A stretch of DNA of 64,000 bases, from NCBI GenBank assembly GCA_963823125.1, contig CAWGKD010000022.1, forward strand, positions 13,416-77,415, read 5' to 3'. A model generated the notes under the pieces. That model saw only the letters and a program-made list of their open reading frames with translations, did not search any database and was not told the origin of the DNA. The first letter of the stretch is position 1. Every line of letters begins with the position of its first letter. Source of the DNA: an uncultured Bacteroidota bacterium (GTDB taxonomy: Bacteria; Bacteroidota; Bacteroidia; Chitinophagales; Chitinophagaceae). Shown one piece after another: positions 47,407-64,000 of the stretch. A program made the position numbers and the translations under genes.

Positions 47407-48108
47407 ATGCTATTAAAAAGTAAAATAACAGATATTCAGCCTTCGATTGACCCGAAAATTAATGAGCAATATGTTAATGCTCGTTTGGGTAAATTTACTG
47501 CAAGTAGAATTAGTTGTTGTATGATGCCAAAAGGAATTGGTGATAGCGGAAGGTCTTATATTCGTTCTCGAATTTTTGAGGATTTGTCCGGGGTAAGTTC
47601 AGATAAAAACATAAGTACAGAAGACATGGAATGGGGATTACAATACGAAAGAGAAGCCCTAAAAATGTTTGGTGAATTAAAGGAGCTTAATTTCTTAATG
47701 GTTCAAAGGGTTGTTTGTGATAAGGATTCAAAATTTGGTTGTACCCCTGATGGACTTTGGGTGAAAAGTGAAAGTTCAGATAAGCTGTCTTACGAAGTTT
47801 CAACAGTAGAAGTAAAATGTTTTCAGGCTGAAAATCATATTAAGTGCGCTTTGTGTTCCACTCCAGAAGAAATAAAAGAAAAAAATTCATCCGCATACTG
47901 GCAAACCGTTATGCAAATGGACGAGTGTGGCGCATTGGTTGGTTATCTGTGCTTTTTTCATCCATTGATGAAGTCTGGTGGATTTAGGATAATAGAATTT
48001 AGGAAAATAAACCTTATCCCCGATTTTAAACTTTTGACCGAAAGAAAAAAAGAAACTTTAAAAATTTATGAGCAAGAAAAAGAAATATTGCTTAGTATTA
48101 AAAATTAA
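47407..48108 (+). CDS. YqaJ-type (lambda-exonuclease-like, PD-(D/E)XK) recombination exonuclease
   Basis: RLGKFTASRISCCM..., GLQYEREALKMF, GCTPDGLW and STVEVKCF follow the YqaJ pattern (TaS; E; D; E.K). Confidence 0.7.
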   Translation: MLLKSKITDIQPSIDPKINEQYVNARLGKFTASRISCCMMPKGIGDSGRSYIRSRIFEDLSGVSSDKNISTEDMEWGLQYEREALKMFGELKELNFLMVQRVVCDKDSKFGCTPDGLWVKSESSDKLSYEVSTVEVKCFQAENHIKCALCSTPEEIKEKNSSAYWQTVMQMDECGALVGYLCFFHPLMKSGGFRIIEFRKINLIPDFKLLTERKKETLKIYEQEKEILLSIKN

Positions 48109-49604: not shown

Positions 49605-49623
49605 CCATTAACTTATAAATACT

Positions 49624-49932
49624 ATGGATAAGATTTCAAAAGAAGATGTGTTGAAAAACTATACAAGCAATGATTGGCTTACGGACGACAGAGCAAAAGA
49701 AGCAATGGATGAATGGGCAGAAATAATATCCAAAGAAAGAGCTATTGGTATTATTGAATTGATAAATGTCTATGATGAATATATTTCATTACTTTCAAAT
49801 AATCCTGCTGAAAGTATGGCTTATGTTCATGGTTTTCGTCATTCAGAAGAAAACATTGAGAAGGGTAAACGGCTGCGAGAAAGAATTAGTTTGTTGAAAG
49901 TAAATCTTGAAACATTAAAACAAAAACCATGA
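49624..49932 (+). CDS. Hypothetical protein (102 aa)
   Basis: Track ORF. Start context ACTTATAAATACTATGGATAAG and N-terminus MDKISKE.. are shared with 51350 and 53313. Confidence 0.55.
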   Translation: MDKISKEDVLKNYTSNDWLTDDRAKEAMDEWAEIISKERAIGIIELINVYDEYISLLSNNPAESMAYVHGFRHSEENIEKGKRLRERISLLKVNLETLKQKP

Positions 49933-50581: not shown

Positions 50582-50637
50582 AGCTAACACCTGTATTTGC
50601 GAAAGTAAACTATAAATACTATGAATGCTAACGTTTT

Positions 50638-50750
50638 CGTATTGGCGAAGTAAGGGAATTGGCATTACCGCAGCATTTAATGAAAAACAAATGATAACAA
50701 ATTATTCATCAGCTCAATAAAGATTGTCAAGCCCTTATTTTGGCAATACG
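50638..50750 (+). ncRNA. Leader hairpin element, copy A (19-bp imperfect stem, 75-nt loop)
   Basis: CGTATTGGCGAAGTAAGGG (50638-50656) pairs with CCCTTATTTTGGCAATACG (50732-50750): 18/19 including two G.U. Homologous to the elements at 52816 and 56437. Confidence 0.5.
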
Positions 50751-50782
50751 GTTGTTGTGCGTTCGTGCTAAATTATTATGTT

Positions 50783-51286
50783 ATGAAAATGAAAGAAATT
50801 ATTTCCGAAAACGAAGCAGAAAATATTGAAGATTGTCTGCTGTGTAAAACACATGAGGAAGCGTATAAAAAAATTCCTGATGGCATTGTTTGCCCATACT
50901 GCAAACATAATAACGAATATGTAGATATAAGTGATTATACGGTTGTTGGTATGACTAACAGTTATGACCCTGAACAAAGCATTGCTAAATATCCTGTATT
51001 TACTTGCATTGAATGTGGTGAGCATATTGCCTTAATACCTGAAAAGGTTAATTATAATGGCAACCATGATGTTTATTATACCGGCGGCAATGATTACTTG
51101 AATGACGATGATGAAAACAAAATTTTCACAGAGGCACAAGAAAAAATTGAAGCCTCGTTAAACCAATGGAAGGAGCGGATTGCGGCTGGTGAAAAATTAG
51201 AAGCCTTTTATCCTGCACTTTGGATTAAAAGAGATATTACCCATGCTATTGCAAGTTATCTATACGAAAAAGGTTTGAAGAAGTAA
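50783..51286 (+). CDS. Zinc-binding protein (167 aa from ATG 50783)
   Basis: CLLCKTH...CPYCKHN...CIECGEH. The track ORF begins at a GTG (50765). Confidence 0.55.
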   Translation: MKMKEIISENEAENIEDCLLCKTHEEAYKKIPDGIVCPYCKHNNEYVDISDYTVVGMTNSYDPEQSIAKYPVFTCIECGEHIALIPEKVNYNGNHDVYYTGGNDYLNDDDENKIFTEAQEKIEASLNQWKERIAAGEKLEAFYPALWIKRDITHAIASYLYEKGLKK

Positions 51287-51339
51287 GGTGTGTTCGAGCA
51301 TGACGCACAACACCTGTATTTGCTAAACGTAAAGTAAAC

Positions 51340-51606
51340 TATAAATACTATGGATAAGAAAATTTCAAAAGAAGTGTTTGATAAATATTATGAAATCTAC
51401 CGAAATTTAGAAAGAAATCCTGCCATCCCAGTAGAAGCAAGGGGTATGATTTATGTAGCAATGTCCGAATATGCTTATATAATGGCTATTGGATTTGCTG
51501 ATTGGGCTTCTGAAAATGGGTATGAAATGCTTTTTGGATGTAAGGCTTGGGAGAAAGCGGGCAATGAAAATCAACTTTCAACCGAACAACTCTATGACAA
51601 GTATAT
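51340..51606. repeat. Dispersed duplication, copy 1 (partner 53303-53569)
   Basis: About 267 bp, identical except for one substitution that I noticed (gcttAtat / gcttCtat). Covers the start context and the first ~85 codons of 51350 and 53313. Confidence 0.85.
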
Positions 51607-51625
51607 TTCTGAAACATTAAAATAA
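51350..51625 (+). CDS. Hypothetical protein (91 aa), paralog of 53313..53597
   Basis: Track ORF. The protein is identical to its paralog over ~85 aa. Confidence 0.6.
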   Translation: MDKKISKEVFDKYYEIYRNLERNPAIPVEARGMIYVAMSEYAYIMAIGFADWASENGYEMLFGCKAWEKAGNENQLSTEQLYDKYISETLK

Positions 51626-51630
51626 AAGTT

Positions 51631-51801
51631 ATGCGAATTGAAATTCCCACTGGTGGCAAGCCAGTAAAAGACCGAGACATCAGAGCCATATATGTTTTGG
51701 ACAAAGGTTTGCAGATGTGTACGGACAGAATGTTAAAAGCTAATATTGATTTTGCACTTTCAAAATATCTATCCGATAAAAAGAAAAAACAAAAACCATG
51801 A
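51631..51801 (+). CDS. Hypothetical protein (56 aa)
   Basis: Below the track threshold. Reads MRIEIPTGGKPVKDRDIRAIYVLDKGLQMCTDRMLKANIDFALSKYLSDKKKKQKP*. Confidence 0.4.
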   Translation: MRIEIPTGGKPVKDRDIRAIYVLDKGLQMCTDRMLKANIDFALSKYLSDKKKKQKP

Positions 51802-51830
51802 GTGATATTATTTAAGTTCTTTTAAATTAT

Positions 51831-51962
51831 AAGGTAAGATGGAAGCAACAAGGCTGCGAAATGAGGGTTGCATAAAGGAACGCAGCATCCGGTCTTGGAC
51901 AGGCAGATACCAAACTGCGAAAAGACTTTTGAAAAAAATAATAACTCATGCCATCTTACCTT
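51831..51962 (+). ncRNA. GC-richer 132-nt island closed by a perfect 12-bp stem
   Basis: AAGGTAAGATGG (51831-51842) pairs with CCATCTTACCTT (51951-51962). An internal GCTGCG-N22-CGCAGC stem is present. Track ORF 51839..52048 runs through it and looks spurious. Confidence 0.45.
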
Positions 51963-52003
51963 ATTTAAGTTCTACGTTGTGGGTGAATCACGTTAAACCC
52001 TCT

Positions 52004-52061
52004 CCCTTCGGGGATAAGTTCTTTAAATTCTATTTTGTTAACTTTTAAAAATAAAAATATG
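52004..52061 (+). repeat. 58-nt regulatory cassette, copy 1 (identical copy at 53773-53830)
   Basis: CCC-TTCG-GGG tetraloop hairpin, then ATAAGTTCTTTAAATTCTATTTTGTTAACTTTTAAAAATAAAAATATG. It ends at the start codon of the downstream gene in both copies. Confidence 0.8.
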
Positions 52062-52199
52062 AAAATTAAAATGTTTAAACGGGGCGTTGGTAACGGATGG
52101 GAAATAAACTTTATTGGTAAAGTTTATAGCTTCCGATTTGCCAGACACCAAATTGCTTTTTGGAAAAATTATAACCCTATTTTCGATATCATATTTTAA
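52059..52199 (+). CDS. Hypothetical protein (46 aa)
   Basis: Below the track threshold. Reads MKIKMFKRGVGNGWEINFIGKVYSFRFARHQIAFWKNYNPIFDIIF*. It is preceded by the 58-nt cassette and followed by a terminator-like hairpin. Confidence 0.4.
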   Translation: MKIKMFKRGVGNGWEINFIGKVYSFRFARHQIAFWKNYNPIFDIIF

Positions 52200-52207
52200 C
52201 ATTCAGG

Positions 52208-52252
52208 GAAGATGGTAAGCCATCCCAAAATACGCAATCATCTTCTCTTTTT
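52208..52252 (+). terminator. Terminator-like hairpin with a competing inner hairpin (second copy at 54044-54088)
   Basis: GAAGATG-N24-CATCTTC followed by TCTTTTT. The 5' arm can instead form GATGG-TAAG-CCATC. The same ~75-nt cassette (AACATTCAGGGAAGATGG...) recurs at 54034. Confidence 0.5.
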
Positions 52253-52269
52253 AATTAATTAAAAACTAA

Positions 52270-52563
52270 ATGTATATGTCAAATGAATTAGGAATTGGCC
52301 TTTCCCCATTAACAGAAAAAATTTATGTTGGGAGGCAAAATAAAGTAAAAAGAATGTGGGTTGGTGAAAAGAAAGATATTACAGATAATTTTTTAGATGT
52401 AATGTTTGCATATCTAAAGGATAGTGATGTTAGGACGATAACAACAACTGATAATAACGGAGGGAAAACAAAACATTTTTTTATTCATTTAAAGGATGAG
52501 GAAAAAAGTTTATTAAGTATGATGAAGTTCATACAAAAAGAATTGAAAAATATTAAACCCTAA
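52270..52563 (+). CDS. Hypothetical protein (97 aa)
   Basis: Track ORF. Confidence 0.55.
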   Translation: MYMSNELGIGLSPLTEKIYVGRQNKVKRMWVGEKKDITDNFLDVMFAYLKDSDVRTITTTDNNGGKTKHFFIHLKDEEKSLLSMMKFIQKELKNIKP

Positions 52564-52794
52564 ATGTATATGGATATACCAGATAACACAAATAAACAGA
52601 TAGATAAAAAGCAGGTAGCATTGAAAGAAGTATCAATAGCGTTTGCTGAATTTTTAGACGAAGATTGCATACGAAGTTTTAAGGGATGGCTATTAAGAGA
52701 CCCTTTGACCGAATACGATGGAACAGAGTTTCAGTTAGATGAGTTATATGATTATTGGCGGGAAAAGATACTATCTGAAAGTGCAGAAGGGTAG
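52564..52794 (+). CDS. Hypothetical protein (76 aa)
   Basis: Track ORF. Confidence 0.55.
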   Translation: MYMDIPDNTNKQIDKKQVALKEVSIAFAEFLDEDCIRSFKGWLLRDPLTEYDGTEFQLDELYDYWREKILSESAEG

Positions 52795-52815
52795 CCTTGC
52801 GCCTTACGTTGGTGC

Positions 52816-52873
52816 TTTACGCGGGGGCAATAAGGAAACTTCAACCTGCGTACTGTGTCAGCCCTTGCGTAAA
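52816..52873 (+). ncRNA. Leader hairpin element, copy B (13-bp stem, alternative fold possible)
   Basis: TTTACGCGGGGGC (52816-52828) pairs with GCCCTTGCGTAAA (52861-52873): 13/13 with two G.U. Alternatively TACGCGGG pairs with CCTGCGTA (52845-52852). Confidence 0.5.
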
Positions 52874-52928
52874 ACACTTTGTTGGCTGCTGTACGGTAAG
52901 ATAATTATTAAACTGTCAAAATAATAAA

Positions 52929-53261
52929 ATGAGAAAGTCAAAAGAAATAGCAAATGAAATATGTATTGTTTATGCAGATGCAATTATGCAAGAAAATTGG
53001 GAACTTTTCACTAAAAAACTTTCAGATGTATTTATGGAAGTTGCTGTGAAAGATGTTCAAGAGTTAAGACAAATGCGTAATGTAAAAACCGATAATGGTT
53101 TGATACCGATTTTTAAAGAACAACGTCAAAAGTATAATGCTATTTGTAAAGTAGTTAATACTGTCAAAGTTGATTTGCTTTCAATAACTGATTTTGACGA
53201 AGTAATAAAAGAGATTCATCCAAACATTTACGACTGGTATGTTTCGCAGGTTGTAGTATAG
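52929..53261 (+). CDS. Hypothetical protein (110 aa)
   Basis: Track ORF. Confidence 0.55.
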   Translation: MRKSKEIANEICIVYADAIMQENWELFTKKLSDVFMEVAVKDVQELRQMRNVKTDNGLIPIFKEQRQKYNAICKVVNTVKVDLLSITDFDEVIKEIHPNIYDWYVSQVVV

Positions 53262-53312
53262 CAGCCAACGTCTGTATTTGCGAAACGCCAAGTAAATAAA
53301 ACTATAAATACT

Positions 53313-53597
53313 ATGGATAAGAAAATTTCAAAAGAAGTGTTTGATAAATATTATGAAATCTACCGAAATTTAGAAAGAAATCCTGCCATCCCAGTAGAAG
53401 CAAGGGGTATGATTTATGTAGCAATGTCCGAATATGCTTCTATAATGGCTATTGGATTTGCTGATTGGGCTTCTGAAAATGGGTATGAAATGCTTTTTGG
53501 ATGTAAGGCTTGGGAGAAAGCGGGCAATGAAAATCAACTTTCAACCGAACAACTCTATGACAAGTATCTTGAAACATTAAAACAAAACCATGAGTGA
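53313..53597 (+). CDS. Hypothetical protein (94 aa), paralog of 51350..51625
   Basis: Track ORF. See the duplication feature at 51340-51606. Confidence 0.6.
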   Translation: MDKKISKEVFDKYYEIYRNLERNPAIPVEARGMIYVAMSEYASIMAIGFADWASENGYEMLFGCKAWEKAGNENQLSTEQLYDKYLETLKQNHE

Positions 53598-53827
53598 TAT
53601 TACATACCACAATCTTATTTAAGTTCTTTTAAATTATTGGTTGTGAGTTGGGCAAGTAAAATCGGTTGTAATACCGGGTGTACCACTTGACAGAGACAGC
53701 GCATGGTTACGAGATTTAACTCAAGATATTGCGAAAAGCCACACAAAAGAAGGTGGATGCTTGCAGCCAATTCCCTTCGGGGATAAGTTCTTTAAATTCT
53801 ATTTTGTTAACTTTTAAAAATAAAAAT

Positions 53828-54025
53828 ATGGAGAAAAAATTGTTTTTCACTTATGACAACGGAGATCAACCAGTAACTGCCAAATTGGATGCTGTAATTG
53901 AAATGCTCAAAGTAGATGCAGAAGAATTAGAAAAGCATCCTGAAGATATTGAGATGTTCGTATTTGATATTACTCCGATATTTATGACACAAAAAGAATT
54001 TGAGGAATTACCGGAAGCCTATTGA
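53828..54025 (+). CDS. Hypothetical acidic protein (65 aa from ATG 53828)
   Basis: The track ORF begins far upstream inside non-coding cassettes. The ATG at the end of the 58-nt cassette (MEKKLFFTYDNGDQ...) is preferred. Confidence 0.5.
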   Translation: MEKKLFFTYDNGDQPVTAKLDAVIEMLKVDAEELEKHPEDIEMFVFDITPIFMTQKEFEELPEAY

Positions 54026-54108
54026 AGTTCTTTAACATTCAGGGAAGATGGTAGTGCATCCCAAAATACGCAATCATCTTCCTTTTTAATCAATTAAAAA
54101 TAAAATAT

Positions 54109-54690
54109 ATGATACCAGATGATATAACGAAAAAGATTGAAGCCGAAAGTTTAAAATGGTTTGACACCCCAAATCCTATTTATAGAGAACTCTTCAATAA
54201 AGGTGGAGAATTTGGTTACTATCTTGCCCAAGATCAGCTAAAAGAACTATTTACTAAAGACCCGATTAATTTTCTATTAGCTAATGCAATGAAACTTGGA
54301 CATGAATCAATGGTTATTCTTTTGGAATCTCTTTATGAAAGAACTGACAACAGATACAAGAAAGAGATAAAAGAAAAAGATAAAGAAGTTGCTGAATTGA
54401 ATAACTGGATTAATGACCTGCAAAGTGGAATGTATGTTAATTGTGTTTACTGCGGCCATAGATATGGGCATGAAAAAGATACACCCGTTTCAATGGCAGA
54501 TGTTTTGAAAGAGCATATTGAAAAATGTCCAAAGCATCCAATGTCTATATTGAAATCAGAATTAGCAGAGAAAGAAAAAGAGATTGCTGACCTTCTTTCA
54601 AAATATGAACAGCTATGTAGATTGTATGAGAAAGCTCAATTAGAGATTGCTGAATTGAAAGATAAGTTGAAGAAATATATAAACAAATAA
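54109..54690 (+). CDS. Coiled-coil / zinc-binding protein (193 aa)
   Basis: CVYCGHRYGH...HIEKCPKHP flanked by heptad-like Lys/Glu-rich segments. Confidence 0.55.
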   Translation: MIPDDITKKIEAESLKWFDTPNPIYRELFNKGGEFGYYLAQDQLKELFTKDPINFLLANAMKLGHESMVILLESLYERTDNRYKKEIKEKDKEVAELNNWINDLQSGMYVNCVYCGHRYGHEKDTPVSMADVLKEHIEKCPKHPMSILKSELAEKEKEIADLLSKYEQLCRLYEKAQLEIAELKDKLKKYINK

Positions 54691-54692
54691 TT

Positions 54693-55238
54693 ATGAAAGA
54701 AATTTGGAAAGATATTCCCGGATTTGAATCAGAATATCAGGCATCCACATTTGGTAGAGTTAAATCGTTAGATAGAATTTCTATTTCAAATAGAGGACAA
54801 TTGGGGTATAAAAGAAAATTAAAAGGGAGAATAATCATACCTAATATTAATATTCATGGCAGACAAGTAATTAGGCTTGCTAAAAACTGTGAAATACTTT
54901 CTACCCATATAAGTAGAATTATTGCACTAACATTTATACCTAATCCAGAAAACAAACCCACCGTGAATCATATAGACGGGAATCATTTAAATAATAGACC
55001 AGAAAATCTTGAATGGGCTACATACGCAGAAAATTTTTATCATGGTGTTGATACTGGGCTTATAAAAGTCAGGGGCGAAAACAACTATTTCGCTAAATTA
55101 AAAAATAAAGACGTTTCTAAGATAAGAGTACTTTTAAGCAACGGTATTAAAAGAAGTGAAATTGCATCATTGTATGGAGTATCTTATGGAACAATTTATG
55201 GAATTGATAAAAAATTATATTGGTCTAAAACAGTTTAA
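54693..55238 (+). CDS. HNH homing endonuclease (NUMOD4 + HNH + C-terminal HTH)
   Basis: IWKDIPGFESEYQASTFGRVKS (NUMOD4-type), VNHIDGNHLNNRPENLEW (HNH) and IASLYGVSYGTIYGI (HTH-like). Confidence 0.8.
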   Translation: MKEIWKDIPGFESEYQASTFGRVKSLDRISISNRGQLGYKRKLKGRIIIPNINIHGRQVIRLAKNCEILSTHISRIIALTFIPNPENKPTVNHIDGNHLNNRPENLEWATYAENFYHGVDTGLIKVRGENNYFAKLKNKDVSKIRVLLSNGIKRSEIASLYGVSYGTIYGIDKKLYWSKTV

Positions 55239-55285
55239 ACAATTCAAACAAGAAAATAATCTATAACCAATAAAACTTTAAATTT

Positions 55286-55453
55286 ATGCAAGATCCAAAA
55301 CAAGTCAATGAATTTCCAATTATGGATGACAGCCCCTTAAATAACGGTTATGGTTATGGAAGATGGGGCGATGAAGATATTGAAGAAGATGAAGAAGACG
55401 AAGAAGAAATAGAAAACGATGACCTTGAAAATTTTGAATTATGCCACGATTAA
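55286..55453 (+). CDS. Small very acidic protein (55 aa), paralog of 57311..57484
   Basis: Below the track threshold. Reads MQDPKQVNEFPIMDDSPLNNGYGYGRWGDEDIEEDEEDEEEIENDDLENFELCHD*. Shares ...EIENDDLENFE (and the underlying nucleotides) with the second copy. Confidence 0.5.
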   Translation: MQDPKQVNEFPIMDDSPLNNGYGYGRWGDEDIEEDEEDEEEIENDDLENFELCHD

Positions 55454-55671
55454 ATATTGAAAGACAAGGAAAGTTAGAACCACTAAGACTTTCGGTTGCT
55501 AAAAAAGAAATTATGTCATTGGGCTGTGAGATAATTTTTGAATGTGATACGAGAATAGAATTTATGTTTAATGATAAATTGGTTAAGTATTATCCGTATT
55601 CGGGTTGGGCAACGGGCGCATCCATTAAAGATGGACGTGGTTTACAAAATCTGTTAAAACAATTAAAATGA
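55441..55671 (+). CDS. Hypothetical protein (76 aa)
   Basis: Track ORF. Confidence 0.55.
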   Translation: MPRLNIERQGKLEPLRLSVAKKEIMSLGCEIIFECDTRIEFMFNDKLVKYYPYSGWATGASIKDGRGLQNLLKQLK

Positions 55672-56057
55672 AAAATATATTATTTATTCTTTTGTTGGTT
55701 AGTGATTTTTGTTTTGCGCAAAGTCCAGATACTATTATTTTAGATAAACCATGTTGCCCTGATTCTATCTTACATTCATCTGGGTTTGGATCGGTTTATT
55801 TATCTATTGTTAAAAATTCCGATTCGTCCATAACAATTACAGCAAGACAAATAGATACGGTTCGTGTTATTATGCTTGTGTGTGATACGTCTAACCAATT
55901 TTATTCTATACATAGCGATACGATAGTTGGTACATTAACAGGATGGGTGTCTTGGCAATTCGGGTATGATGTAAGAGAAAACAACGAACATCTTTATTAT
56001 CTTGATGAAAATAAAAAACCATTAAATAAAAATATTGTTGTATGGCAAGTAAAATAA
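55668..56057 (+). CDS. Secreted protein (129 aa)
   Basis: MKNILFILLLVSDFCFAQ/SPD, a signal peptide with ...FAQ, as in the gene at 1..748. Confidence 0.6.
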   Translation: MKNILFILLLVSDFCFAQSPDTIILDKPCCPDSILHSSGFGSVYLSIVKNSDSSITITARQIDTVRVIMLVCDTSNQFYSIHSDTIVGTLTGWVSWQFGYDVRENNEHLYYLDENKKPLNKNIVVWQVK

Positions 56058-56356
56058 AAAATATATTTAAGCGGTTGTTTCACAAAAATAAAAAAGATGG
56101 TGTAGCAGAAACATTCGTAAGGTTAAGAGAAATAGGCAGTTCTTGGAATGATACGATTTGTGTTTGTAGAGAATTAATGAGAGATGATCCATGCTATATA
56201 AATTGCAAGGAATTTTTTGATGAATCTCTTGCGAATAGTTTTAAAGAAAGAACATTAACCCAAACAACAAAAGCATCTGAGGTTAATGAATCAGAACAAT
56301 CAGATATTTTTGAACAATGGAAATCAATAACAAGAAATGGAGATTATAAAGAATGA
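56042..56356 (+). CDS. Small basic/acidic protein (104 aa), paralog of 57481..57696
   Basis: Shares KNIFKRLF near the N-terminus and TTKASEVNESEQSD.F.QWK.IT at the C-terminus with the paralog. Confidence 0.55.
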   Translation: MASKIKNIFKRLFHKNKKDGVAETFVRLREIGSSWNDTICVCRELMRDDPCYINCKEFFDESLANSFKERTLTQTTKASEVNESEQSDIFEQWKSITRNGDYKE

Positions 56357-56436
56357 TGGAGGTAAATAAAATTTGGTAACTATATACTTATTGACCCTGA
56401 AAGTGTGGCGTGGGAAAAAATAACATATAACGTTTT

Positions 56437-56509
56437 CGGGCTTGGCGAAGGTGGGCTTGTAGGATGCTCAATTTTAGCAGAATGTTTCTGCCCACTTTTG
56501 CCAAACCCG
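56437..56509 (+). ncRNA. Leader hairpin element, copy C (20-bp imperfect stem, 33-nt loop)
   Basis: CGGGCTTGGCGAAGGTGGGC (56437-56456) pairs with GCCCACTTTTGCCAAACCCG (56490-56509): 19/20 including two G.U. Confidence 0.55.
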
Positions 56510-56549
56510 TGTTACAAGCAGTACGGATTATTAACAACGAATTTTTAAA

Positions 56550-57299
56550 ATGGAAGTAAACAAAATATATAATGAGGATTGTTTGGAAACCCTAAAAAGG
56601 TTGCCTGATAACTTTATTGATTTAATGCTTACAGACCCACCGTATAATGTAACAAGGAATGAATGGGATAAACCTATTGATTTAGATGTTTTGTGGTTGG
56701 AATGGCATAGAGTAGTAAAACCAAATGGTGCAATAGTAATTACATCACAGCAACCTTTTACAACTGATTTGATTAACAGCAATAGAAAGTATTTTAGATA
56801 TGATTTGATTTGGGAAAAATCAAGATGCACAGGATTTTTAAATGCTAACAAAATGCCAATGAGAAGCCACGAACATATTTTAGTATTTTACAAAGAACTG
56901 CCAATATTTAACCCACAAAAAACAAAGGGAAATCCAAACCATATTTCTAATGGCAAAATATCAAGTAAGGGTAAAAATAACAATTACGGAAACTTTGAAC
57001 AATTAGCAAGATTTAGAACTGAAGATAAGTTTCCAAAATCAGTTATTTACTTTGAGCAAAACGACCCAAATGTAATAATACATCCTACTCAAAAAAGTTT
57101 GGATTTATTTAGATGGCTGGTGCTTTCTTATTCAAATGAAAATGATTTAATATTTGATGGGTATATGGGAAGTGGCACAACCGCCGCTGCGGCTATAATG
57201 GAGAAAAGGAATTTTATTGGTAGTGAAATAGATGAAGAATATTTTAAACTTTCACAAAAAAGAATTTCGTTACTAAAACAACAACCAACATTAATCTAA
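56550..57299 (+). CDS. DNA N6-adenine/N4-cytosine methyltransferase (beta class, DPPY)
   Basis: LMLTDPPYNV (motif IV) is N-terminal, HPTQKS is central, and FDGYMGSGTTAAAA (motif I) is C-terminal. No cognate restriction gene seen. Confidence 0.8.
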   Translation: MEVNKIYNEDCLETLKRLPDNFIDLMLTDPPYNVTRNEWDKPIDLDVLWLEWHRVVKPNGAIVITSQQPFTTDLINSNRKYFRYDLIWEKSRCTGFLNANKMPMRSHEHILVFYKELPIFNPQKTKGNPNHISNGKISSKGKNNNYGNFEQLARFRTEDKFPKSVIYFEQNDPNVIIHPTQKSLDLFRWLVLSYSNENDLIFDGYMGSGTTAAAAIMEKRNFIGSEIDEEYFKLSQKRISLLKQQPTLI

Positions 57300-57310
57300 A
57301 TTTATTTTTT

Positions 57311-57484
57311 ATGAGTATCTTAAATCCCAAAGAACCCAATGGGTTTTCAAATCTCGGTGATGAAGGAACTAATAATGGGTATTGGATAACTATGTTTGAT
57401 GAATTTAATGGGTTAACTTATTGCCAAGAAATTGAAGATGACAAAGAAATAGAAAACGATGACCTCGAAAATTTTGAAGCATGA
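57311..57484 (+). CDS. Small acidic protein (57 aa), paralog of 55286..55453
   Basis: Below the track threshold. Reads MSILNPKEPNGFSNLGDEGTNNGYWITMFDEFNGLTYCQEIEDDKEIENDDLENFEA*. Confidence 0.5.
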   Translation: MSILNPKEPNGFSNLGDEGTNNGYWITMFDEFNGLTYCQEIEDDKEIENDDLENFEA

Positions 57485-57696
57485 AAAATATATTTAAGCG
57501 GTTGTTTGGTTGGTTAAGAAAAAAAGAAAAACCAAAAGACAAAGAATGGATAAAAAAATATATGAAGGAACATTACAAAGAATTTCAAAAATCAAAACCA
57601 TTAACCCCAACAACAAAAGCATCTGAGGTTAATGAATCAGAACAATCAGATACATTCAATCAATGGAAAGACATAACACAAAGAGATAATGATTGA
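57481..57696 (+). CDS. Small basic/acidic protein (71 aa), paralog of 56042..56356
   Basis: See 56042..56356. Its stop overlaps the start of the second methyltransferase. Confidence 0.55.
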   Translation: MKNIFKRLFGWLRKKEKPKDKEWIKKYMKEHYKEFQKSKPLTPTTKASEVNESEQSDTFNQWKDITQRDND

Positions 57697-58339
57697 ACTA
57701 TTAAATATAGACTGCATGGATTATATGAAAGACTTGCCTGATAAGTCTATTGACCTTGCAATAGTTGATGTTAATTATGGGATTCAACAAGACGGAAGAA
57801 ATAATCATAGCAGGGGTGTGTTGGCTAAATCAAAAGATTATCGGAATAATTCAAGATACGACAATGGAAGTCCAGATATTTCTTATTTCAACGAATTATT
57901 TAGGGTTAGTAAAGAACAAATAGTTTTTGGTGCAAACCATTTTATTAGCAAACTTCCTTTTGATAGTTCGTGCTGGATTGTTTGGGATAAGCAAAATGGT
58001 GATAATGATTTTGCGGATTGTGAACTTGCATATACCTCATTTGATACATCAGTAAGAATATTTAGATTTAGGTGGCAAGGAATGTTACAGGGTGATATGA
58101 AAAATAAACAAGAACGAATACATCCAAATCAAAAACCTATTCAACTTTACAAATGGCTATTAAAGAACTACGCCAAAGAAGGTGATAAAATTTTAGATAC
58201 TCATCTCGGTTCGGGCAGTTCGGCAATAGCAGCTTATGACATGGGATTTGATTTTGTAGGATGTGAGCTGGACAAAGATTATTTCGATGCAATGATGAAA
58301 AGGTTTAACAATCATAAAATGCAGGGAACATTATTTTAA
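57689..58339 (+). CDS. Second beta-class DNA methyltransferase-like protein with atypical motif IV (DVNY)
   Basis: IHPNQKP and ILDTHLGSGSSAIAA (motif I) fit the same family. The position of DPPY is occupied by LAIVDVNYG. Confidence 0.65.
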   Translation: MIELLNIDCMDYMKDLPDKSIDLAIVDVNYGIQQDGRNNHSRGVLAKSKDYRNNSRYDNGSPDISYFNELFRVSKEQIVFGANHFISKLPFDSSCWIVWDKQNGDNDFADCELAYTSFDTSVRIFRFRWQGMLQGDMKNKQERIHPNQKPIQLYKWLLKNYAKEGDKILDTHLGSGSSAIAAYDMGFDFVGCELDKDYFDAMMKRFNNHKMQGTLF

Positions 58340-60566: not shown

Positions 60567-63500
60567 GGATATAAGTCGAATTTATACAGGAATTGCATGA
60601 AATAATGGACAAAAATGGGTAGAAAAATCATTTTCATGTTATAAGTCTATTTTTAGGCCTTACCCAAGAAATGGAAAGAAATTTGAAACATCTGGGTGGC
60701 AACACTCGACAACCAACATGTAGTTTATTGGTTTTTTAATTCTAAAAAAAGGAAACGAAGTCTGAAAAACACGAGACTTGACATGGTGTCATGATATGAT
60801 ACTTAGAGGCTGTGGTAAAAAGTTGACAAGGTTTCGCAAAAGTTGTCACGTACGTTGCTTAGAAACCGAAGCATCTCCGAGGAATGAACGTGGTTTCGAG
60901 AGGGAACGGAGCAGGTTAGAAGCCGAAGTGACGGTTGAATCGTCGTTTGACCTTGAACCATTTTGTACACTCAACATACGACATAGCATGTTCGATGTTA
61001 CAATTTGGTATTTTTCTGGGTCCGTTTGCTATTTTTAATTCATTAATTGCATTTCTAGGCCTTTTAATGGATATAAGTCAAATTTGTACTGCAAGTGCAT
61101 GAAATAATGGACAAAAATGGGTAGAAAAATCATATTCATGTTGTTGAGTCTATTTTTAGGCCTTACCCAAGAAATGGAAAGAAATTTGAAACATCTGGGT
61201 GGCAACACTCGACCACCAACATGTAGTTTATTGGTTTTTTAATTCTAAAAAAAGGAAACGAAGTCTGAAAAACACGAGACTTGACATGGTGTCATGATAT
61301 GATACTTAGAGGCTGTGGTAAAAAGTTGACAAGGTTTCGCAAAAGTTGTCACGTACGTTGCTTAGAAACCGAAGCATCTCCGAGGAATGAACGTGGTTTC
61401 GAGAGGGAACGGAGCAGGTTAGAAGCCGAAGTGACGGTTGAATCGTCGTTTGACCTTGAACCATTTTGTACACTCAACATACGACATAGCATGTTCGATG
61501 TTACAATTTGGCATTTTTCTGGGTCCGTTTGCTATTTTTAATTCATTAATTGCATTTCTAGGCCTTTTAATGGATATAAGTCAAATTTGTACTGCAAGTG
61601 CATAGAAATAATGGACAAAAATGGGTAGAAAAATCATATTCATGTTGTTGAGTCTATTTTTAGGCCTTACCCAAGAAATGGAAAGAAATTTGAAACATCT
61701 GGGTGGCAACACTCGACAACCAACATGTAGTTTATTGGTTTTTTAATTCTAAAAAAAGGAAACGAAGTCTGAAAAACACGAGACTTGACATGGTGTCATG
61801 ATATGATACTAGAGGCTGTGGTAAAAAGTTGAGAAGGTTTCGCAAAAGTTGTCACGTACGATGCTTAGAAACCGAAGCATCTCCGAGGAATGAACGTGGT
61901 TTCGAGGGAACGAGCAGGTTAGATGCCGAAGTGACGGTTGAATCGTCGTTTGACCTTGAAACATTTTCTACACTCAACATACAACATAGCATATTCGATG
62001 TTAAAATTTGGCATTTTTCTGGGTCCGTTTGCTATTTTTAATTCATTAAGTGCATTTCTAGGCTTTTAATGGATATAAGTCAAATTTGTACTGCAAGTGC
62101 ATGAAATAATGGACAAAAATGGGTAGAAAAATCATATTCATGTTGTTGAGTCTATTTTTAGGCCTTACCCAAGAAATGGAAAGAAATTTGAAACATCTGG
62201 GTGGCAACACTCGACCACCAACATGTAGCTTATTGGTTTTTTAATTCTAAAAAAAAGCAAACGAAGTCTGAAAAACATGAGACTTGACATGGTGTCATGA
62301 TATGATACTTAGAGGCTGTGGTAAAAAGTTGAGAAGGTTTCGCAAAAGTTGTCACGTACGATGCTTAGAAACCGAAGCATCTCCGAGGAATGAATCGTGG
62401 TTTCGAGAGGGAACGGAGCAGGTTTGAAGCCGAAGTGACGGTTGAATCATCGTTTGACCTTGAAACTTTTTGTACACTCAACATACAACATAGCATGTTC
62501 GATGTTACAATTTGGCATTTTTCTGGGTCCGTTTGCTATTTTTAATTCATTAATTGCATTTCTAGGCTTTTTAATGGATATAAGTCAAATTTGTACTGCA
62601 AGTGCATGAAATAATGGACAAAAATGGGTAGAAAAATCATATTCATGTTGTTGAGTCTATTTTTAGGCCTTACCCAAGAAATGGAAAGAAATTTGAAACA
62701 TCTGGGTGGCAACACTCGACCACCAACATGTAATTTATTGGTTTTTTAATTCTAAAAAAAGGAAACGAAGTCTGAAAAACACGAGACTTGCCATGGTGTC
62801 ATGATATGATACGTAGAGGCCGTGGTAAAAATTTGAGAAGGTTTCCAAAAGTTGTCACGTACGATGCTTAGAAACCGAAGCATCTCCGAGAAAGAATCAT
62901 GGTTTCGAGAGGGAACGGAGCAGGTTAGAAGCCGAAGTGACGGTTGAATCATCGTTTGACCTTGCAACTATTTTGTACACTCAACATACGACATAGCATA
63001 TTCGATGTCCAAATTTGGCATTTTTCTGGGTCCGTTTGCTATTTTTAATTCATTAAGTGCATTTCTAGGCTTTTAATGGATATAAGTCAAATTTGAACTG
63101 CAAGTAGATGAAATAATGGACAAAAATTGGTAGAAAAATCATATTCATGTTTTTGAGTCTATTTTTAGGCCTTACCCAAGAAATGAAAAGAAATTTGAAA
63201 CATCTGGGTGGCAACACTCGACAACCAACATGTAGCTAATTGGTTTTTTAATTCTAAAAAAAGCAAACGAAGTCTGAAAAACATGAGACTTGCCATGGTG
63301 TCATGATATGATACGTAGAGGCCGTGGTAAAAAATTGAGAAGGTTTCGCAAAAGTTGTCACGCACGATGCTTAGAAACCGAAGCATCTCCGAGGAAGAAT
63401 CATGGTTTCGAGAGGGAACGGATCAGGTTTGAAGCCGAAGTGACGGTTGAATCATCGTTTGACCTTGCAACTTTTTCTACACTCAACATACGACATAGCA

Positions 63501-64000
63501 TATTCGATGTCCAAATTTGGCATTTTTCTGGGTCCGTTTGCTATTTTTAATTCATTAAGTGCATTTCTAGGCTTTTAATGGATATAAGTCAAATTTGAAC
63601 TGCAAGTAGATGAAATAATGGACAAAAATTGGTAGAAAAATCATATTCATGTTTTTGAGTCTATTTTTAGGCCTTACCCAAGAAATGAAAAGAAATTTGA
63701 AACATCTGGGTGGCAACACTCGACAACCAACACGTAGCTAATTGGTTTTTTAATTCTAAAAAAAGGAAACGAAGTCTGAAAAACATGAGACTTGACCATG
63801 TAAGAGTGTCGATGATATGATACGTAGAGGCTGTGGTAAAAAATTGAGAAGGTGTCGCAAAGTTGTCACGCACGATGCTTAGAAACCGAAGCATCTTCGA
63901 GGAATGAATCGTGGTTTCGAGAGGGAACGGATCAGGTTTGAAGCCGAAGTGACGGTTGAATCATCGTTTGACCTTGAAACTTTTTGTACAATCAACATAC
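60567..64000. repeat. Tandem array of a ~502-bp non-coding unit, 6 full copies plus 1 partial, continuing beyond the window
   Basis: Unit starts (GGATATAAGTC) lie at 60567, 61069, 61572, 62071, 62576, 63078 and 63580. The copies differ by substitutions and 1-3-nt indels that break every ORF in at least some copies. Confidence 0.95.

Follow-up and report, generated by a model that had tools for sequence, protein, structure and literature searches.

The attC sites of integrons, about 50-150 nucleotides (nt) long, are imperfect inverted repeats bounded by AAC and GTT triplets (full consensus RYYYAAC/GTTRRRY), with arms that vary in sequence and pairing that is conserved. Unpaired spacers of ~5 nt on both strands separate their outer and inner helices, extrahelical bases mark the folding strand and the terminal structure is variable. 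One site follows each open reading frame (ORF) in co-oriented arrays, the cassette ORFs are antisense to the strand that folds better (the bottom strand), and chromosomal arrays lie beside a tyrosine recombinase related to Xer and IntI. In the early genes of phage T7, mutually related RNase III hairpins (irregular stems of ~20 bp with an asymmetric internal loop) occur once per intercistronic junction. T4-type phages carry PeSLs (promoter-early stem-loops), repeated intergenic modules of plastic small-gene regions and gene-swap junctions, in which a terminator is joined to an early sigma-70 promoter; homologous recombination is regarded as their likely mechanism (PMC2839356, PMC4122927). Clusters of attC sites without an integrase (CALINs) have been described in virulent phages, with methyltransferases noted among their cargo (Qi et al. 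2023, PMC9892861), and IntegronFinder 2.0 reports almost no integrons in Bacteroidetes (PMC9024848). Here, we analyse three hairpins, termed A, B and C, in a 64,000-nt stretch of DNA from an uncultured Chitinophagaceae bacterium (contig CAWGKD010000022.1, positions 13,416 to 77,415; hereafter the window).

The hairpins and their relatives share with attC the comparable size, the AAC/GTT-bounded inverted repeats whose arms vary while pairing is kept, an unpaired (here asymmetric) spacer between outer and inner helices, the variable terminal structure, the co-oriented arrays with one site per ORF, the position of crossover-like breaks at the AAC triplet of one end and the Xer/IntI-related recombinase beside chromosomal arrays. 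With the phage CALINs they share DNA methyltransferase cargo, and one published phage site, P12002L_attC1, is itself a member of the family. We put at roughly 0.6 the probability that A, B and C are phage copies of attC-like recombination sites specific to Bacteroidota, which would fold from single strands and bound gene cassettes.

A large hairpin family in Bacteroidota phages and chromosomes

A, B and C belong to a large hairpin family that is present in hundreds of copies, forming one-per-gene arrays in Flavobacteriia phage contigs and in Bacteroidota chromosomes. On the folding strand, members read (Y)TAACG, a spacer of 3-5 nt, a covarying stem of 17-24 bp with two G·T wobbles, a variable loop and TGTTA. 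The family was first met upstream of methyltransferase homologues in viral contigs, where it recurs at consecutive gene junctions, and a covariance model made from 12 copies had 34 matches in the loci of these homologues. A pattern scan of the viral collection matched at least 120 stretches. In the 80 viral stretches searched, model matches at E ≤ 1e-3 number 215, and viral arrays hold up to 17 co-oriented copies, one every 400-700 nt. Since loci were gathered by one sequence pattern and by methyltransferase homology, the representation of cargo and variants is biased, and some of the 'viral' contigs may be bacterial. One variant is found at 97% identity in cultured Flavobacterium phages, and Flavobacterium phage mumin9-1 carries 11 copies that are co-oriented with its module of methyltransferase and small genes.

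The family is defined by three covariance models (R1-R3), with R2 describing the short class and R3 the long class from phage and bacterial copies. R2 and R3 were built without any window sequence, and a shortened calibration makes the E-values rough. With both strands of the window searched, A, B and C are the three best matches and the only significant ones (Table 1).

A sequence-only reading of this DNA had taken the three stems, with arms that are unlike yet complementary, as a sign of a selected structure in RNA or single-stranded DNA. The stems lie where that reading placed them, with 18/19 (A), 13/13 (B) and 19/20 (C) positions paired, and covariation on a large scale bears out the selection. 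Across 137 homologues, the share of paired cells is 96.9%, compared to 72% in shuffles and 39-55% in slid controls, and 620 cells changed on both sides compared to 166 in shuffles (a value reached by 0 of 500 shuffles); this alignment was fitted to the model structure, which favours pairing. Compensatory changes are abundant in the long helix, which shows covariation at 16 of its 17 pairs and has 96.1% of its cells paired. The outer helix (UAACG/UGUUA) is invariant, with TAAC and GTTA in 136/136 homologues. The GAAG:TTTT segment with its two G·U pairs, already picked out by the sequence-only reading, turns out to be family-wide (kept in 134/136 and 82/136 sequences). G·T pairs also mark the folding strand: non-conserved columns hold 36 G·U compared to 10 A·C, and the strand that bears G·T is the more stable in 159 of 200 cases (DNA parameters).

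According to RNAfold, all three stems are minimum-energy folds (A -35.8, B -32.0 and C -38.0 kcal/mol), and the opposite strand folds more weakly (A -27.6, B -27.0 and C -33.2 kcal/mol). The single-sequence folding z-scores are modest (A -2.2, B -1.3 and C -3.2), so that any one hairpin by itself is not compelling and, taken singly, each could pass for a chance inverted repeat in AT-rich intergenic DNA. The E-values of 5e-15, 2e-9 and 2e-3 obtained with independent models, together with covariation in hundreds of homologues, refute this explanation, to which we give a negligible probability.

Aligning only the three window copies with MAFFT was uninformative. A and C have a common core (TTGGCGAAG / TTTTG(S)CAA), outside of which 6-7 stem positions differ, every one compensated on the opposite arm. 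The flanks had been described as shared; they are, but less uniformly than claimed. On the 5′ side, TAACGTTTTCG is common to A and C, and B reads TTACGTTGG. On the 3′ side, GC(A/T)GTACGG is common to C (TGTTACAAGCAGTACGG) and B (TGTTGGCTGCTGTACGG) and not to A, whose flank TGTTGTGCGTTCGTGC lacks GTACGG and carries ATTATTAT instead of ATTATTAA. Two exclusive, riboswitch-like folds had also been proposed for B: the 8-bp alternative pairing (52818-52825 / 52845-52852) exists, but it is ~5 kcal/mol worse and has no counterpart in the family, and we do not retain the switch.

The outer triplets read TAAC...GTTA in C, TAAC...GTTG in A and TTAC...GTTG in B. Having lost its AAC, B is probably dead as a recombination site. 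Dinucleotide composition predicts 17.5 occurrences of AACGTT in the whole window, which has 3, and hairpins A and C account for two of these.

Anatomy of the element at phage gene junctions

Phage counts were made with a strict home-made descriptor that has 3 hits in shuffled sequence compared to 497 in real sequence. An earlier, looser descriptor had ~25% false positives, so its figures are approximate, and the key counts were redone with the strict one. The outer helix TAAC/GTTA is closed by a G·T pair. Between this helix and the stem, 3-5 nt stay unpaired on the 5′ side and 0-2 nt on the 3′ side, which makes the spacer asymmetric. Alignments of the stems (14-24 bp) are gap-free, the model consensus has no conserved bulge, and terminal loops range from 5 to 95 nt across the family. 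In the long class, which measures 110-135 nt from TAACG to TGTTA, loops of 61-72 nt are built from some three 19-21-nt units in tandem, each approximating AGCACAAATGTTCAATTT (for example contigs L003 6807-6954 and L267 7747-7895). The units are conserved in phage and bacterial copies alike and may be protein-binding sites. Copies within one genome have almost wholly different arm sequences and keep the pairing.

The element is intercistronic, starting at, or within ~13 nt of, the stop codon of the upstream gene. The stop is the TAA of TAACG itself in 79 of 285 phage cases, and it lies 12 or 13 nt before TAACG in a further 86. In many long-class copies the 3′ arm is preceded, at a distance of ~21 nt, by an ATG with an A-rich leader. 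The loop ATG opens an ORF of at least 40 codons in 113 of 215 long-class copies, in which case the 3′ arm encodes an N-terminal extension of the downstream protein; the proteins extended in this way vary and include N6 and C5 methyltransferases and YopX. Finally, a run of at least five T, right after the GC-clamped base helix, is found within 25 nt after 23% of the copies.

Opposite polarity in phages and chromosomes

In phage contigs, 422 of the 449 flanking ORFs (94%) are on the folding strand (106 loci compared to 4), and the window hairpins likewise have the coding strand as their folding strand. Bacterial loci have 211 of 230 flanking ORFs on the non-folding strand (74 loci compared to 1). 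The chromosomal arrays thus match the polarity of attC, with the folding strand as bottom strand.

Since phage genes are encoded on the folding strand, their mRNA contains the hairpin too, and the version transcribed is the G·U-bearing, more stable one. A secondary effect of the phage hairpins on expression is likely. A role at the RNA level is accordingly the main rival of the attC-like reading, or else a second function. In its strong form, this explanation would make the element an intercistronic hairpin of phage mRNA that insulates cistrons, exposes the unstructured start region of the following gene in its loop, stabilises the transcript or processes it as T7 RNase III sites do, and attenuates it at U-runs, its likeness to attC stemming from common ancestry or convergence. 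The polarity in phages, the upstream stop codon at the 5′ base of the helix, the A-rich leader with its ATG and in-frame ORF, the T-runs behind a clamped helix and the stem that B has kept despite the loss of AAC are all in its favour. Nevertheless, the same family is antisense to genes in 74 of the 75 bacterial loci with a majority orientation, so constraints that hold family-wide cannot be mRNA functions. Whether it is sense or antisense to genes, the element keeps its invariant AAC/GTT helix, its wobbles, the repeats in its loop and the T-run, and this points to a function that resides in the DNA strand and not in the mRNA. Rfam has no match to the hairpins at the gathering score and none even at E ≤ 5, no terminator-like site was called at A, B or C, and an RNA function leaves unexplained both the recombinase association and the TAAC breakpoints described below. 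The T7 RNase III hairpins, close as they are in layout, differ from this family in the same respects: its members also occur antisense in bacteria, have an outer helix of invariant sequence and are linked to a DNA recombinase. We regard a mainly mRNA-level function as a rather unlikely explanation of the phage copies.

Chromosomal arrays adjoin a tyrosine recombinase

The same pattern, applied to one genome per species, matched at least 120 bacterial stretches, almost all from Bacteroidota; isolates among the matches listed include Pedobacter, Arundinibacter, Kaistella, Riemerella and Chryseobacterium. These stretches hold 132 strong model matches in arrays spaced by ~600-1100 nt, and their cargo is cassette-like (MepB-like, Mrr, HEPN, DUF2971 and LuxR-type).

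A tyrosine recombinase is encoded in 20 of the ~120 bacterial loci listed, each at most 8 kb long. Eight bacterial loci with this recombinase were examined, and in 7 of them its gene is found upstream of the array, reading in the direction of the cassette genes. The integron-integrase model TIGR02249 matches the chromosomal recombinase with E=1e-61, and VchIntIA (PDB 2A3V) is its best relative of solved structure. In Arundinibacter the enzyme (L237 2223-3899) has 558 amino acids (aa), of which an N-terminal extension takes up ~290 aa; a large extension is present in many copies.

The arrays of Arundinibacter roseus (L237 2223-7791), of L209 and L223 and of other Bacteroidota chromosomes carry defence-like cargo with the recombinase adjoining. 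Tyrosine recombinases of 265-294 aa end four phage-type arrays downstream (L109 1596-2480, L162 232-1035, L182 4183-5016 and L193 1354-2151, the last of 265 aa); these small enzymes belong to the same broad family as the chromosomal one and are on the same strand as the genes and hairpins. An SSB gene was considered as a conserved partner of the recombinase and rejected, being beside it in 2 bacterial loci only.

Homology between phage contigs breaks at TAAC

Next, we looked at high-identity megablast alignments between different viral contigs, which provide 62 distinct endpoints near elements. Among these, 32 fall at -1 to +5 of TAACG compared to ~2 expected; half of them are homologies that start at TAACG and half homologies that end at TAAC. 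The remaining endpoints include ~8 near the 3′ end of the element and 12 inside it. For the window itself, the only such evidence comes from hairpin C, a discrete module that is 94% identical to contig L137 over 56427-56526, with homology beginning at ATAACG and both flanks unrelated; L137 has no further similarity to the window. In L137, the TAA of TAACG ends a 1605-aa ORF, and an unrelated NPPY methyltransferase comes next.

Exchange at such junctions could also come about by homologous recombination, with the hairpins acting, as PeSLs do, as conserved intergenic linkers that shuffle genes, possibly with the help of a phage YqaJ-type exonuclease. Besides the PeSL precedent (PMC2839356, PMC4122927), this explanation can draw on a ~119-nt variant of the hairpin (mean identity 91%), found between 18 upstream and 12 downstream gene clusters that are all different, and on a YqaJ-like exonuclease gene in the window (47407-48108). 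However, the endpoints cluster in a 7-nt span at the 5′ TAAC rather than across the module or at both of its edges, and most copies of one array are too divergent for homologous recombination. No promoter consensus such as a PeSL should have was found either: sigma-70-like sites are not enriched (25 compared to 32 expected, in a scan that covers promoters of the sigma-70 type and not those of the Bacteroidota type), and on the plus strand none lies in or beside the hairpins except two overlapping ones ~30 nt 3′ of C (56544-56573). The site-specific breaks, and the extension of the family to chromosomal arrays with a site-specific recombinase, further set it apart from PeSLs, and we consider homologous shuffling improbable.

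A selfish palindromic element, similar to a miniature inverted-repeat transposable element and inserted into ...ATAAC|GTTAT... between genes, would account for the 100-nt module that C and L137 have in common between unrelated flanks; excision of its interior would leave a near-perfect palindrome from the outer helix. Recent transposition of such an element from a master copy would give the opposite of what is seen in copies of one genome, which differ in their arms while pairing is kept. No transposase is associated with the hairpins and their orientation to genes is strictly polar, which makes transposition still less probable than homologous shuffling.

Some partner junctions have no hairpin exactly where a related contig has one (L017 6718, L112 5579, L108 2319 and L176 12793 (minus strand); coordinates on the element-sense strand). 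They read TAAC|TAC... or TAAC|TAG..., followed by an A-rich leader and ATG. These junctions may be attI-like or secondary sites.

Nor do these results support the proposal of the sequence-only reading that the hairpins are gene-specific 5′ leaders. The element is intercistronic, and in chromosomes its arrays, which adjoin a tyrosine recombinase, are antisense to the genes. Roughly every second long-class copy in phages has the ATG of the next gene inside its loop, phage-contig homology breaks at TAAC, and one member has a published attC call (PMC9892861).

The case for and against attC-like sites

Taken together, the constraints on the DNA strand, the recombinase association and the TAAC breakpoints lead us to prefer attC-like sites over the other explanations. 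According to this model, the strand reading TAACG...TGTTA would fold in vivo when single-stranded, and a tyrosine recombinase of the Xer/IntI type, such as the one adjoining the arrays, would bind the folded site and exchange strands at the AAC triplet, presumably by cleavage at AA|C. The unit of hairpin and following gene would thereby move between arrays.

Several observations weigh against attC-like sites. No recombinase homologue was found in the 64-kb window, so any activity in the window phage would need a host enzyme or one encoded elsewhere. Only three sites are present in the window; they are spread over 6 kb and separated by several genes, and two of these sites are degenerate. The phage polarity is the reverse of that in chromosomal arrays and canonical integrons, the folding strand being the coding strand and the loop and TAAC doubling as start and stop signals. 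Some features of the phage copies would also suit a role as RNA, namely the loop ATG (113/215 of the long class), the stop in TAACG and the T-run (23%).

The sites themselves match the full RYYYAAC/GTTRRRY consensus only in part. Their stems are without the extrahelical bases of canonical attC, G·T wobbles marking the strand instead; two of these wobbles are conserved, the loop can be long with its ~three repeats of 19-21 nt, and the spacer is asymmetric where attC has unpaired nucleotides on both strands. The chromosomal recombinase remains below the TIGR02249 cutoff (209 compared to 265 bits) and is missing the IntI-specific insertion, aligning to IntI4 in two pieces (35 aa compared to 77), and many copies have the large N-terminal extension, a further difference from integrons. 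P12002L_attC1, which is exactly the element found by our model at 30062-29992 of Polaribacter phage P12002L, is the sole experimentally tested member; it was the only one of six phage sites without verified IntI1 recombinants, while the other five recombined (PMC9892861). Finally, the orientation, start-stop and breakpoint counts depend on a descriptor of our own making, and the ends of megablast alignments are no more than a proxy for recombination junctions. One crossover point is not enough to explain fully why one ~119-nt variant occurs with many different gene pairs, or why the homology of C and L137 stops on both sides.

Because the family departs from canonical attC sites and integrons in several defining respects (no extrahelical bases, no IntI insertion and a negative IntI1 assay), we describe the sites as integron-like and not as an integron.

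Two further sets of published phage sites have similar ends. The attC sites of Pseudoalteromonas phage PH101 read ATAACG...TTGTTAT and the site of Tetrasphaera phage TJE1 reads ATAACA...TTGTTAT, and both recombined with IntI1 (PMC9892861, Table S3). Judging by these reads, TAAC...GTTA hairpins may extend beyond Bacteroidota phages.

Genes and repeats around the window hairpins

The window is phage-like (33.6% GC) and has a portal gene and a primase/helicase gene; the portal has distant relatives only, in Cellulophaga and Flavobacterium phages. No tRNAs were found in it, and no Shine-Dalgarno signal is seen by eye before its genes. A, B and C sit among small genes and two DNA methyltransferase genes that form a plus-strand module; methyltransferases are the typical cargo of the hairpin family. 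No relatives of the 167-aa and 312-aa neighbour proteins were found in viral contigs, and no close relatives of the hairpin region were found in the phage collection. The genes directly following the hairpins are listed in Table 1.

Table 1. Positions of the three hairpins, their parts and the adjoining reading frames in the window.
Feature	Position	Strand	Description	Basis
Element C	56428..56526	+	intact	R2 73.5 bits (E=5e-15), R3 70.3 bits (E=2.6e-12), R1 60.5 bits; models untrained on C
C, 5′ end	56428-56432	+	TAACG	
C, spacer	56433-56436	+	TTTT	
C, stem	56437-56456 / 56490-56509	+	5′ and 3′ arms; 17 Watson-Crick, 2 G·U, 1 mismatch	
C, loop	56457-56489	+	33 nt	
C, 3′ end	56510-56514	+	TGTTA	
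C, conserved tail	56515-56526	+	CAAGCAGTACGG	
Element A	50629..50757	+	long class, nearly intact	R3 56.1 bits (E=2.1e-9); minimum-energy fold; family alignment
A, 5′ end	50629-50633	+	TAACG; AAC retained	
A, spacer	50634-50637	+	TTTT	
A, stem	50638-50656 / 50732-50750	+	5′ and 3′ arms; 16 Watson-Crick, 2 G·U, 1 mismatch	
A, loop	50657-50731	+	75 nt	
A, 3′ end	50753-50757	+	TGTTG; GTT retained; outermost pair T·G	
Element B	52804..52896	+	degenerate	R2 24.9 bits (E=0.0017), R3 25.9 bits (E=0.003)
B, 5′ end	52804-52808	+	TTACG (AAC changed to TAC)	
B, stem	52816-52828 / 52861-52873	+	5′ and 3′ arms; 11 Watson-Crick, 2 G·U	
B, loop	52829-52860	+		
B, 3′ end	52880-52884	+	TGTTG	
B, tail	52885-52896	+	GCTGCTGTACGG	
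N6/N4 DNA methyltransferase	56550..57299	+	directly 3′ of C	Pfam PF01555, E=2.9e-33
167-aa gene	50783..51286	+	3′ of A	no confident family assignment
110-aa gene	52929..53261	+	3′ of B	no family assignment
Ten-codon ORF	50621..50653	+	ATG AAT GCT AAC GTT TTC GTA TTG GCG AAG TAA	sequence reading
31-codon ORF	56464..56559	+	from C loop ATG; ends 10 nt inside methyltransferase gene	

In relatives of C the loop ATG is in frame with the downstream protein, and in C itself this frame is broken (Table 1). At A, a ten-codon ORF begins at the ATG of a repeated promoter/start-like motif and enters the 5′ arm, which suggests a junction or rearrangement a few nt before TAACG. The motif (CTGTATTTGCGAAA...TAAACTATAAATACTATG) is found at 49609, 50606, 51335 and 53298, where it adjoins gene ATGs, and at 50606 it opens the ten-codon ORF only.

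We also considered and rejected several other roles for the window hairpins. A short protein gene running through them (47-aa ORF in C, 61-aa ORF in B) is interrupted by a stop in A, and the shared 'peptides' NPCY and AKPxLA are conserved nucleotides read in different frames. For an invertible promoter, the 33-75 bp between the arms are too short, and the arms differ among copies. An N4-type hairpin promoter, nut/put antitermination and gene-60-type bypass were discarded, the element being present once per gene, antisense in bacteria and without a supporting feature. As for a host-type promoter in the loop, inspection by eye reveals no Bacteroidota -33/-7 motif, and sigma-70 sites were not enriched in the scan for them.

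The module contains further repeats and structures. A 279-nt duplication with 99% identity (51329-51607 and 53292-53570) yields paralogous genes of 91 and 94 aa (51350-51625 and 53313-53597), and a third paralogue begins at 49624. An HNH/NUMOD4 homing-endonuclease gene (54693-55238) lies between hairpin-bearing junctions. Both N6/N4 methyltransferase genes (56550-57299 and 57689-58339) are preceded by paralogous small ORFs, with a hairpin at the first only; the matching segments are 86-96% identical (56042-56356 / 57481-57696 and 55394-55443 / 57434-57483). A perfect long-range stem of 14-16 bp encloses ~105 nt at 51829-51964. Two other hairpins are each present twice: a TCCC-TTCG-GGGA mini-hairpin followed by AAGTTCTTTAAATT (52003-52076 / 53772-53845, 93% identical) and a GGGAAGATGG...CATCTTC hairpin followed by a T-run (52195-52264 / 54031-54100, 84% identical). 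Finally, a tandem array of at least seven ~502-nt units occupies 60567-64000, reaching the window end (anchors at 60567, 61069, 61572, 62071, 62576, 63078 and 63580); it escaped Tandem Repeats Finder, which accepts periods of up to 500 nt only.

Implications

Beyond the window, we tentatively propose, at somewhat less than even odds, that an integron-like cassette system, so far unrecognised, is common to Bacteroidota and their phages, with a clade of Xer-like recombinases of its own, an inverse polarity in phages and hairpins with several roles. The recombinases of this clade would lack the IntI insertion, and their size would be ~270 aa in the phage contigs and ~560 aa in a chromosomal example. 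The sites of the system would be without extrahelical bases, their G·T wobbles would be conserved and their loop would be made of repeated units. A single phage hairpin would combine a recombination site, the stop codon of the gene before it (TAA|C) and a start module for the gene after it, and anti-restriction methyltransferases and other accessory genes would be plug-in units between phages and host arrays. Judging by the literature, standard integron tools seem to fail to recognise the Bacteroidota chromosomal hairpin arrays.

If this is true, Flavobacteriia phages would trade small accessory genes, notably anti-restriction DNA methyltransferases, as cassettes at a 4-nt junction, and the phage cassettes would be tied to large and apparently unannotated arrays in Bacteroidota chromosomes. 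The integron principle of a folded single-strand site recognised by its structure would be extended to another recombinase clade and another site grammar, with testable rules for site recognition. Using one hairpin both for recombination and to stop and start translation would be a compact solution that has no described counterpart in integrons.

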